DNA from: Patescibacteria group bacterium | GTDB lineage: Bacteria; Patescibacteriota; Saccharimonadia; CAILAD01; BJGX01 | DNA: 52,850 bases | Direction: 5' to 3' | Assembly: GCA_030917065.1 (NCBI GenBank) | Contig: JAUPVL010000033.1 | Coordinates: forward strand, 1-52,850 | Shown here: in pieces, positions 20,007-21,418 of the stretch | How positions within the stretch are numbered: the stretch's first letter is position 1 | Layout: the number at the start of each line of letters is the position of its first letter | Made by a program: the position numbers and the translations under genes | Notes under the pieces: model-generated | The model's database searches: none | What the model was told of the DNA's origin: nothing | What the model saw: only the letters and a program-made list of their open reading frames with translations

Positions 20007-20507
20007 TTAGCTTTTGGTTAGGTCTTTGAAGTAATGGACTATAGGAATACCTACATACCCAGCTTTTTCATAAGACCGTCTCGCAGGTGCGTGCGTAGGG
20101 TCGCCGCCCGTGCCAATCTTAGCGATTTTCATTCCAGCCTTCTTCATTTTATCAAGGGCAAATAGGTTCAGTTCGGTGCCAATTCCTTTTCCTGAATAAG
20201 AGGGGTGCACTGCAAGCAAGTAAACCTCGCCCAACTTTTCCTTATGGTCAAGCTTCAATGCAAAGAAGCCCACTACCACACCTTCCAGCTCAGCCACCCA
20301 AACCTTGAATTTACGGCTCTTACATGCTTCTTCAACAGTTTTTTGCTGCATTTTCTTCCAGTTTGGATGCAGCAATTTGTCTATGTCAGAGCCAACAATA
20401 TCCTTAAAAGAAGTGAAAAATGGCTCCCAGGCAAGTAATGACAGGCTTACAACGCTGTCCAAATCCTGGTACTTGAAGCTTCGAATTTTAGTCTTTCGTG
20501 CCGTCAT
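20007..20507 (-). CDS. GNAT family N-acetyltransferase
   Basis: The acetyl-CoA binding core reads LLAVHPSYSGKGIGTELNLFALDKMKKAG...SYEKAGY. ATG 20507 overlaps the erm stop (ATGA), while the ORF is open from 20519. Confidence 0.75.
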   Translation of the reverse strand: MTARKTKIRSFKYQDLDSVVSLSLLAWEPFFTSFKDIVGSDIDKLLHPNWKKMQQKTVEEACKSRKFKVWVAELEGVVVGFFALKLDHKEKLGEVYLLAVHPSYSGKGIGTELNLFALDKMKKAGMKIAKIGTGGDPTHAPARRSYEKAGYVGIPIVHYFKDLTKS

Positions 20508-21418
20508 AAATCCCGCCAATCTTTGGCGGTTCTTGTTCTATGTACCTTTTCCATTTTCTGTTGCTGCTGTTTCTGCTGAGCCTTGGCACCCCGAACAAGT
20601 TGCTGCTTTTCCTCAATAACGCCGACCATGAAATACTTAAACAAGCCAAGCCACTGCTCAAACCCAAGTTCAGTTGGAGTGGCTTTAAGGTCAAAGTGCA
20701 GTTCTCTTGCCAGCCGCTTGAACTGGTTATGGGTAAATATGTCTTCAAGCCCTTTTCTTAGGCTCGCTTTCTTGGTATTAAAGGAGTATACAATAAAATC
20801 ACTGTAGACAGGTCGCTCCACGGCTTTGACCAATGGGGCTGGTAGTTTTCTCACTCTCAACAAAACAACTTCTACTGCAGGGGCGGGCTGAAAATCAGTC
20901 TTACTAAACTTGTGAGCCTCCGAAAACTCAAACCAGGGCTTTGTAAGAACAGAAAACTGAGTTTCTTGACCACCATAAGGCTTACCTGCCAATTTCATAG
21001 CTGCCTCTTTTTGGACAAAAAGGTAGCTATCATCTGGCGGGTTATCGGCTTCAACCAGCTTCCTCACAATGTCGGCCGTGATATTAAATGGTATGTTAGA
21101 AAATATCTTATAGGGCTGACTAGGCAAGCTCTGGTCTAAGAAGTTGCCCCTAATTATCTTCACATTATCAGAGTTGTTAAAGTTCTCGTTCAGGTTGTCA
21201 ATCAATCTACTGTCCGCTTCTACAGCAACAACCTGTTTGCAATACTTGGTTAGCTCGGCAGTTATCACGCCAGTTCCTGAGCCAATCTCATACACTGTAT
21301 CAGCCGAGGTAATTGATGATTTGTCTAAAAGCTTAGCAACCAAACCTGGGCTTTTTACGAAGTTTTGGGAATACTTTATGCTTGAGCGAGGCTCATCTAG
21401 TTTCTTTTTTATGTCCAT
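20504..21418 (-). CDS. erm: Erm-family 23S rRNA (adenine-N6)-methyltransferase with Gln-rich C-terminal extension
   Basis: Similarity to remembered ErmB/ErmC sequences runs along the full length:
- IKYSQNFVKS vs IKYSQNFLTS.
- DTVYEIGSGTGVITAEL vs DTVYEIGTGKGHLTTKL.
- QPYKIFSNIPFNITADIVRKL vs [21 protein letters not shown].
- FQPAPAVEVVLLRV vs FHPKPKVNSVLIKL.
- FTHNQF vs FTKNQF.

About 45 extra C-terminal residues follow (EEKQQLVRGAKAQQKQQQQKMEK...). Confidence 0.8.
   Translation of the reverse strand: MDIKKKLDEPRSSIKYSQNFVKSPGLVAKLLDKSSITSADTVYEIGSGTGVITAELTKYCKQVVAVEADSRLIDNLNENFNNSDNVKIIRGNFLDQSLPSQPYKIFSNIPFNITADIVRKLVEADNPPDDSYLFVQKEAAMKLAGKPYGGQETQFSVLTKPWFEFSEAHKFSKTDFQPAPAVEVVLLRVRKLPAPLVKAVERPVYSDFIVYSFNTKKASLRKGLEDIFTHNQFKRLARELHFDLKATPTELGFEQWLGLFKYFMVGVIEEKQQLVRGAKAQQKQQQQKMEKVHRTRTAKDWRDL

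Follow-up and report, generated by a model that had tools for sequence, protein, structure and literature searches.

The window analysed here (the whole 52,850-nt stretch of contig JAUPVL010000033.1, from a bacterium of the Saccharibacteria) carries an erm gene whose product belongs to the Erm family of 23S rRNA adenine N6-methyltransferases and is most similar to Erm(53) and Erm(42), and this gene rides as cargo on a small mobile element inserted at a tRNA-Gly gene. Taken together, the evidence makes it likely that the protein is a functional A2058 methyltransferase of the Erm(42)/Erm(53) lineage, provided with a conserved C-terminal tail module and carried by a circularising 6,581-bp serine-recombinase element. 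Target-site resistance to macrolides is due mainly to Erm methyltransferases, and erm(42) and erm(53) form an atypical lineage that is important in bovine respiratory pathogens and is now present on enterobacterial plasmids; the origin of this lineage is not addressed in the literature that was found.

The product is an Erm-family enzyme and not one of the KsgA/RsmA type, as a curated hidden Markov model cutoff, the tree and the fold agree. Specifically, it matches Pfam RrnaAD at 7.6e-52 and passes the NCBIfam model NF000499 (Erm23S_rRNA_broad) with 229.1 bits against a cutoff of 212, residues 17-261 aligning to positions 2-242 of the 244 in the model, whereas the KsgA equivalog TIGR00755 is not passed (162.1 bits, cutoff 171). 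The Erm(42) model spans residues 4-298 (model positions 6-299 of 303), and the Erm class-specific models score 201 (cutoff 600) or lower. The six motifs by which the first-pass annotation had recognised a 304-amino-acid Erm-like protein are all found (SIKYSQNF, DTVYEIGSGTG, YKIFSNIPFN, FQPAPAV, FTHNQF and FEQWLGLF), and the motifs of S-adenosylmethionine (SAM) binding and catalysis are intact, with EIGSGTG, VEAD, NIPF and FQPAPAV occupying columns that are invariant across the 71 aligned homologs on which all column conservation is based. The best named relatives by tblastn are Erm(53) with 40.7% and Erm(42) with 38.4% identity, in alignments that reach residue ~297, and over the core columns the protein shares 41% of its residues with Erm(53), 39.5% with Erm(42), 28-31% with Erm(A/B/C/T) and 17-19% with RsmA. 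The nomenclature of macrolide-lincosamide-streptogramin (MLS) resistance genes requires at least 80% amino-acid identity for membership of an existing erm class. No named class is reached at 40.7%, so that a new erm designation would be needed if activity is shown.

The neighbor-joining tree was computed on 259 well-occupied core columns, leaving out the C-terminal tail, with 300 bootstraps. The references, taken from annotated plasmids, are Erm(53), Erm(42), two unnamed Erm(42)-like genes, Erm(A), (B), (C), (T), (F) and (X), with the RsmA proteins of E. coli and P. multocida as outgroup. In trees and alignments the window protein is represented by its 90%-cluster representative (P0001, returned as “100% identical”), which differs from it at residue 125 alone (EANNPP vs EADNPP). 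Within this limited sampling of 10 Erm and 2 RsmA references, the window family and the Erm(42)/Erm(53) group form one clade as sisters (89% bootstrap), and RsmA is a distant outgroup; the phylogenetic check that the first-pass annotation had proposed against Erm and KsgA sets thus places the protein with Erm(42) and outside KsgA/RsmA. The AlphaFold2 model, built with the 71 homologs and compared with solved structures by Foldseek, has a mean predicted local distance difference test (pLDDT) score of 90.7, and its top matches are ErmE (template modelling score (TM) 0.92, root-mean-square deviation (rmsd) 2.0 Å), Erm38 and ErmC' (TM 0.88, rmsd 2.6 Å). These three enzymes share with it the Rossmann SAM-binding and helical RNA-binding domains (target-normalised TM 0.82-0.92, rmsd 2.0-2.9 Å) and motifs I, II, IV and VIII, and differ in their 25-31% identity and in the absence of an extra C-terminal module. 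The KsgA/RsmA/Dim1 proteins belong to the same superfamily (Pfam RrnaAD) and have the same overall fold, but they are 17-19% identical, are encoded by a core gene rather than by accessory mobile cargo, and superpose less well (TM 0.61-0.81, rmsd 3.4-7.2 Å for the KsgA/Dim1 structures), a gap to Erm that is moderate and not absolute. A sequence search of solved structures likewise returns ErmC' and ErmE as the best matches, with an Erm38 chain and the ErmC-like 1yub just under a Dim1 chain.

The C-terminal residues ~265-304 reach past the aligned end of ErmA/B/C/T, and the 39 residues from G266 include 8 Gln and 6 Lys. The first-pass annotation had described them as a Gln/Lys-rich tail foreign to ErmB and ErmC; its position beyond the ends of these proteins stands, with the refinement that the tail is conserved in Erm(42), Erm(53) and the homologs. 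The motif …L.K[VI]HRTR..K[ND]W is present in all 120 homologs listed (109 strictly, 11 as single-residue variants). Moreover, R294 is invariant and K291, H293, T295 and Q286 are 94-99% conserved in the alignment, a level comparable to that of the catalytic positions. The module also occurs in Erm(42), Erm(53) and two unnamed erm genes, located on plasmids of Klebsiella/Acinetobacter/Proteus/Salmonella and of Providencia, and is absent from Erm(A/B/C/T) and KsgA. Erm(42) and Erm(53) resemble the window protein over their full length of ~300 amino acids, in the NIPF variant and in an extension ending L-x-K-[IVL]-H-R-x-R: the related tails end …SSLEKIHRNR… and …SKLEKVHRSR…, compared with …QKMEKVHRTRTAKDWRDL in the window protein, and the W-containing end K[ND]W distinguishes the window family from Erm(42)/Erm(53), which are without it. 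The tail is therefore a conserved module that defines the lineage and not a low-complexity filler, and the Gln run of the window protein is a local peculiarity of one helix rather than the defining feature of the tail. In the AlphaFold2 model, which answers the structural check proposed for this extension, a short helix (269-272) and a longer one (278-288) are both of high confidence and are followed by an HRTR stretch (292-298) of low confidence; the low confidence fits a basic segment that is ordered only on partner binding, and from the model we infer that this partner would be the rRNA. Literature searches on the Erm(42) tail or on erm(53) returned nothing relevant under proxy terms, names with parentheses not being matchable.

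The vehicle of the gene is delimited by direct observation. The element (Table 1) has a large serine recombinase at one end, four backbone genes, and a helix-turn-helix (HTH)-erm-GNAT-kinase operon as cargo. Three contigs (L006, L007 and L009) are circular permutations of it, in which window position 19086 is joined directly to 25673, and since their terminal overlaps (141 and 77 nt) equal assembler k-mers, the unit measures exactly 6,581 bp; circular assemblies could in principle stem from tandem copies. The core TTGGTGC is present at both chromosomal junctions and once at the circular junction, where attP reads …AACATTTGGTGCAAGATATG…. In a further contig (L004), a copy of the element with 99.97% identity borders on a tRNA-Gly that differs slightly, and its left flank is entirely different; at least four different flanks are known for the element. 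The att cores, the circular contigs and the several insertion contexts show the element to be mobile, probably by means of its large serine recombinase, a phrog_95 integrase (1.4e-62) with weak similarity to CcrA and XisF. The recombinase open reading frame (ORF) extends over the att core: on the circle it continues through …NNNIWCKICDALQTAAVDAQ… to 538 amino acids (L009 4320-5936), and in the integrated form it ends …NNNIWCG* at 503 amino acids, its last codons being supplied by the tRNA-Gly sequence. Integration thus swaps the C-terminus of the enzyme, which might bias integration against excision. Two hairpins lie close to the att cores: a terminator-like, G+C-rich one with a T-run at 19048-19065, ~20 nt outside attL on the strand of the operon, and a G+C-rich GCCCTTTCGGGC hairpin at 25641-25652, inside the element and just upstream of the recombinase stop (25677-25679).

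The environmental distribution points in the same direction. Among the Logan contigs of four metagenomes, three (X1, X3 and X19) hold a discrete ~6.6-kb element contig at depth 11-12; X3 and X19 have no depth on the left flank of the window and X1 has only low-depth fragments there, and in the fourth the contig runs on into the flank of the window itself. The loose contig ends differ among these runs, one of them being tRNA-like. The contig collection has the exact Erm protein in 129 sample blocks, almost always on 2-10 kb contigs, and all sampled words of the element occur in metagenomes of at least 12 studies from 2020-2025, covering wastewater, activated sludge, sludge, anaerobic digester and freshwater. 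We propose that the element has recently spread among different Saccharibacteria genomes in wastewater-type habitats. Hence the earlier view of a mobile MLS-B-type cassette holds for its mobility, which is now assigned to a 6,581-bp serine-recombinase element with att cores, circles and several contexts, while the MLS-B phenotype is putative. A plasmid or phage already known as the source of the element was sought and rejected: there is no blastn match in PLSDB, and the 394-amino-acid backbone protein has no tblastn match in INPHARED phages or IMG/VR.

Table 1. Features of the mobile element, its cargo and its insertion site (positions in the window; aa, amino acids)
Feature	Position	Strand	Basis
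Integrated mobile element, circular unit of 6,581 bp plus one extra 7-nt core copy	19086..25673	.	circular contigs L006, L007, L009
attL core TTGGTGC	19086..19092	.	same 7 nt at both ends
P-loop kinase, AAA_33 “predicted kinase” family, 170 aa	19488..20000	-	PF13671 1.7e-27; model pLDDT 90.3
GNAT N-acetyltransferase, 166 aa	20007..20507	-	PF00583 1.3e-14; relatives generic only
erm, Erm-family 23S rRNA adenine N6-methyltransferase, Erm(42)/Erm(53)-like, 304 aa, ATG start	20504..21418	-	NF000499, Pfam RrnaAD, tree, Foldseek
Conserved C-terminal module of Erm, residues ~265-304 (helix 278-288, then K-V-H-R-T-R…K-D-W)	20507..20626	-	alignments, AlphaFold2 model
HTH_17/excisionase-family DNA-binding protein, 73 aa, first operon gene	21393..21614	-	PF12728 6.3e-11; TIGR01764 29.2 bits
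Backbone protein of unknown function, 237 aa, divergent from the HTH-erm operon	21658..22371	+	no family matches
Backbone protein of unknown function, 69 aa	22463..22672	+	conserved across element copies
SpoVG-like backbone protein, 103 aa	22739..23050	+	weak SpoVG matches; kept on related elements
Backbone protein of unknown function, longest ORF 394 aa (public gene calls give 375 aa)	22956..24140	+	no Pfam/PHROG/NCBIfam match
Large serine recombinase, 503 aa integrated, 538 aa circular	24168..25679	+	Resolvase PF00239, Recombinase PF07508, Zn_ribbon_recom PF13408
attR core TTGGTGC, reverse complement of GCACCAA (tRNA-Gly 3' end with CCA)	25667..25673	.	sequence
tRNA-Gly(GCC), integration target, intact after insertion	25668..25744	-	ARAGORN; Rfam 70.3 bits
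Remnant of an older related element: degenerate left arm and transglutaminase-like gene	18014..19085	.	repeats D1, D12; sequence
Transglutaminase-like gene	18123-19028	-	beside degenerate left-arm copy

Within the element, erm is the second gene of a fully packed operon, as already noted in the first-pass annotation and borne out by direct reading of the minus strand: the HTH stop at 21393 and the erm ATG at 21418 give a 26-nt overlap, the TGA stop of erm overlaps the ATG of the GNAT gene (“ttATGAcgg”, 20504-20507), and 6 nt lie between the GNAT stop (20007) and the kinase ATG (20000). The overlap of the erm stop with the GNAT ATG places the GNAT start at 20507 with a product of 166 amino acids, the 170-amino-acid ORF from TTG being a mechanical maximum, and public gene calls agree on the starts of the HTH (73 amino acids), GNAT (166) and kinase (170) genes. 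The erm gene begins within the HTH gene, and the interval between the HTH ATG (21614) and the start of the divergent gene (~21658) measures only ~46 nt, which leaves no space for a leader peptide or an attenuator; their absence had been remarked on before. Rfam returns only tRNAs over 16000-27000. In this respect, the window erm, translationally coupled to the upstream HTH gene, differs from erm(C) and erm(T), which rely on leader-peptide attenuation (ermCL annotated), and is like Erm(42)/Erm(53), for which no classical leader peptide is annotated upstream. When the operon was scanned for promoters and terminators, shuffled sequence gave counts at least as high, and the region upstream of the HTH gene showed no consensus promoter; the patterns used may not suit Saccharibacteria. 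The HTH protein reaches the cutoff of the TIGR01764 “excisionase family DNA-binding domain” (29.2 vs 28.8 bits) and may be a directionality or regulatory factor of the mobile element rather than an erm-specific regulator, so that a simple role as erm regulator is not supported. On the Psychrobacter plasmid pWB2, a 79-amino-acid HTH gene lies immediately upstream of erm(53), and two ISVsa3 copies flank the region (L010 2707-2946); an HTH-erm unit shared with erm(53) was considered and rejected, as the pWB2 and window HTH proteins have no BLASTP similarity. Lastly, in the contigs of three wastewater metatranscriptomes the erm, GNAT and kinase genes have low-depth coverage, which suggests that these genes are transcribed in wastewater.

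A mechanism can be outlined on these grounds. The Erm protein most likely methylates N6 of A2058 in 23S rRNA during 50S assembly, and the product would probably be monomethyl-A2058 by analogy with Erm(42), which is designated a monomethyltransferase in a title (Desmolaize et al. 2011, as cited in PMC6028734). The methylation would lower macrolide and lincosamide binding and protect the Saccharibacteria host. The prediction of monomethylation and of a macrolide/lincosamide phenotype, rather than full MLS-B, follows from the Erm(42) analogy only; AMRFinder classes Erm(42) as lincosamide/macrolide only. In the tail, the extra helix would pack on the helical RNA-binding domain and the flexible basic K-[VI]-H-R-T-R…K-[ND]-W segment would contact the rRNA. 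Expression is expected to proceed from erm as the second cistron of the tightly coupled four-gene operon (excisionase-family HTH, erm, GNAT, P-loop kinase), with no attenuator, and the serine recombinase presumably recombines the 7-nt TTGGTGC core with the tRNA-Gly 3' end, so that the element excises as a circle.

Relatives of the window erm are widespread: an alignment-based scan finds them in at least 406 GTDB species, mostly Patescibacteria and also Chloroflexota, Acidobacteriota, Latescibacterota and others, and the Erm family comprises 1,239 protein clusters. Among near relatives, a locus with a 72%-identical Erm (P0003) has the same backbone and keeps HTH-erm-GNAT-kinase, one with a 69%-identical Erm (P0005) has the same backbone with an XRE-type HTH, DUF4238, erm and then variable genes, and one with a 64%-identical Erm (P0006) lies in a defence-rich region. 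At this last locus (L025), which shows no element backbone, PycTM, Mrr_cat, a CD-NTase with a Cap15-like effector and Lsr2 are found. Farther away, 3-kb flanks were inspected at the 80 best distant loci from the GTDB species-representative scan: a large serine recombinase is present at 16 of them, the 394-amino-acid protein at 7, the SpoVG-like protein at 4 and the HTH at 7, with the 394-amino-acid protein, erm and recombinase together at 7, and none of the 80 has a GNAT or kinase homolog. At several of these loci the erm stop and the start of the recombinase gene are no more than 10-20 nt apart. The recombinase and backbone genes beside distant erm loci indicate that elements of this family repeatedly carry erm in Patescibacteria, while the absence of the partners from all 80 loci and the loss of the unit at 69% identity indicate that the erm-GNAT-kinase linkage is recent and lineage-specific. 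The recurrence of HTH-erm-GNAT-kinase as a unit, which the first-pass annotation had asked about, is consequently confined to loci with at least 72% Erm identity. Five Patescibacteria loci with 44-48% Erm identity (L121, L133, L136, L141 and L146) show a related, differently arranged family of erm elements, in which the recombinase starts 8-27 nt past erm (ends ~1113-3876) and the 394-amino-acid and SpoVG-like genes are upstream. Separately, L118 (OZ246397.1) and many records named “binchicken” or “SRP…_co” present a Patescibacteria-type erm under “uncultured Gammaproteobacteria” or “Pseudomonadales” titles; one is a complete chromosome of 615 kb, a size far below what its label implies, and these third-party names of metagenome-assembled genomes (MAGs) are probably wrong.

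The erm(42)/erm(53) lineage has a large and deep family, with a shared C-terminal module, in Patescibacteria and some other environmental phyla, and at least one of its genes has a compact circularising vehicle that is sequence-identical across wastewater, sludge and freshwater metagenomes of many studies. Erm(42)/Erm(53) reside on integrative and conjugative elements (ICEs) and plasmids of Pasteurellaceae, Enterobacterales and Psychrobacter, within ISVsa3/IS91-flanked regions, whereas the window gene belongs to Saccharibacteria and to a serine-recombinase element. It can be tentatively proposed, as a possibility that we rate below even chances, that erm(42) and erm(53) were captured from the tail-bearing Erm family of Patescibacteria and Chloroflexota as their environmental reservoir, that K-x-H-R-T-R is an unrecognised rRNA-recognition element, and that the 6.6-kb element is an actively transferring resistance vector. 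In this scenario the K-x-H-R-T-R module would set the timing of substrate recognition or the choice between mono- and dimethylation, and the bacteria belonging to the candidate phyla radiation (CPR) would be a mobile, and not merely passive, part of the macrolide resistome. Alternatively, erm(42) and erm(53) may only share a common ancestor with the window family, given the limited reference sampling of the neighbor-joining tree.

Genes resembling erm have already been catalogued in CPR genomes, and the window gene is a further member. Maatouk et al. 2021 (PMC8651080) report 3,077 erm-like hits, Saccharibacteria included, and the preprint of Razzouk et al. 2026 (10.64898/2026.07.13.738296) reports 13,375 “erm” hits in 12,552 CPR genomes. 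According to their available passages, these surveys count by BLAST/CDD, so that KsgA is probably included in our judgement, and record matches of a “resistance-like” kind with neither vehicle nor function; the same passages mention no mobile elements, conserved tail or link to Erm(42)/(53), and the word “mobile” does not appear in PMC8651080. One gene with its element, tail and att site offers a concrete object for asking whether CPR erm genes confer resistance, and if the protein proved inactive it would be a caution against counting such matches as resistance genes.

Several observations weigh against a functional A2058 methyltransferase that protects its host. The acidic residue of motif III is an Asn in the window protein (GNFL), where 60 of the 71 homologs have Asp; the replacement looks tolerated, because the other 11 share the Asn. 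The identity to any characterised Erm is at most 41%. The metatranscriptome contigs are unstranded and may reflect DNA carry-over. A FolD-anchored GTDB scan for the empty attB found no sister genome, returning only relatives of 35-42% identity. The only expression study of CPR resistance-like methyltransferases excluded MLS-type genes and obtained no phenotype from the aminoglycoside-type ones that it tested (10.64898/2026.07.13.738296). Finally, a family of at least 406 species and 1,239 clusters also fits an intrinsic ribosome-modification role in many lineages, and this is the core of an alternative explanation, namely that the protein is a true Erm-fold rRNA methyltransferase whose role is not resistance, but an intrinsic or adaptive ribosome modification, widespread in Patescibacteria and Chloroflexota, of A2058 or a site nearby; it could tune translation or shield these epibionts from ribosome-targeting molecules of their bacterial host. 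Besides the breadth of the family and the number of CPR hits, this alternative draws on the lack of an obvious tie of most family members to clinical antibiotic exposure and on the lack of an inducible attenuator at the window erm. It is nevertheless unlikely, since the window erm is accessory cargo on a recently spreading element and not a core gene, the element is abundant in wastewater and sludge, and Erm(42) and Erm(53), the named proteins closest to it, are recognised resistance determinants that pathogens carry on ICEs and plasmids; moreover, a shielding from natural macrolides would still be resistance in mechanistic terms.

A resistance-type Erm carried as mobile cargo also has to be weighed against the idea that the HTH, erm, GNAT and kinase genes work together as a single functional cassette directed at the translation apparatus or at several drugs. 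In this case the acetyl acceptor of the GNAT would be a drug, a ribosomal protein or an aminoacyl-tRNA, and the substrate of the kinase would be a drug or the 5'-OH end of an RNA. The tight coupling of the four genes, with overlapping or near-abutting junctions, and the maintenance of the unit in the element with the 72%-identical Erm speak for such a cassette, as do some features of the partners. The kinase model has its nearest folds in the kinase domains of bacterial Pnkp and mammalian PNKP, i.e., polynucleotide kinases, in the tRNA kinase PSTK and in gluconate kinase; the kinase passes the Pfam Zeta_toxin cutoff (40.5 vs 22.3 bits), although AAA_33 scores much higher; and the relatives of the GNAT carry the “RimI-like” label of JGI, homolog searches naming them “GNAT/RimI-like” only. 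Against it, the partners are missing from all 80 distant erm loci, and the 69%-identical erm sits in the same backbone with entirely different neighbours. The kinase homologs, for their part, occur in unrelated contexts: relatives 55-60% identical, named only “predicted kinase”, are found even in Streptomyces and Dehalococcoidia, and their neighbours vary from genome to genome. The GNAT scores 18-27 bits with AAC(6')/RimI models, far below their cutoffs of 86-385, and no antibiotic kinase is among the top 50 fold matches of the kinase model. A drug kinase or drug acetyltransferase identity is thus rejected, the NCBIfam and PDB matches being generic or far below cutoff, and the role of drug-modifying partners suggested earlier for the two proteins is not supported; a role of either on RNA or the ribosome would be a speculation from these models. 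Separately acquired cargo packed into one operon is the simpler reading, GNAT and kinase are co-cargo and not conserved partners of erm, and a single functional cassette appears improbable. In Yanofskybacteria (L109/L110 4001-6991), a 65%-identical kinase homolog lies directly upstream of two APH-family phosphotransferases and a PRK-family kinase, so that four small kinases of unknown purpose are clustered.

That the HTH-methyltransferase pair is a MADS-like anti-phage system methylating DNA rather than rRNA is barely credible: PADLOC matches mad1 to the HTH (3.5e-10), mad2 to residues 18-212 of the methyltransferase (2e-20) and, weakly, mad8 to the kinase (1.2e-4), but the match to the Erm model (5e-68) is much stronger and extends over the entire protein, Erm-type C-terminal domain included, mad6-8 are mandatory in the MADS model while mad1 and mad2 are merely accessory because they match generic regulators and methyltransferases, and no mad3-7 equivalent exists on the 6.6-kb element, so that such a defence system was rejected.

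As a vehicle, the element that carries the putative A2058 methyltransferase resembles SCCmec (CcrA/CcrB) and the serine-integrase prophages in its Resolvase-Recombinase-Zn-ribbon recombinase, short att core, circular form and resistance gene cargo. It differs from them in its size of only 6.6 kb, its tRNA 3'-end target and its Patescibacterium host, and in backbone proteins of 394, 237 and 69 amino acids that belong to no known family.

The insertion site appears to have been used before. The stretch 16829-19085, which separates tRNA-Val from the element, appears to be left over from older insertions at this tRNA site: it includes a degenerate copy of the left arm (18014-18104, 82% over 72 nt, with an exact 16-mer and the core TTGTTGC), and its ORFs at 16907-17428 and 17433-18011 match no families. 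The metagenomes X3 and X19 hold the element with no depth over the 18014-19085 remnant. The rest of the window is ordinary chromosome, with genes for a thioredoxin-reductase-like protein, UvrB, UvrA, UvrC, FolD, LigA, GatA, GatB, DnaE, NusA, ClpC and a class A penicillin-binding protein; UvrB is 85-92% identical to that of Saccharibacteria MAGs and ~70% identical to that of many Saccharimonadales, and a 91.6-kb JGI contig equals window positions 10504-31418 save for 3 mismatches. Between uvrB and uvrA, two overlapping ORFs of 250 and 398 amino acids (3947-5892) have no Pfam match.

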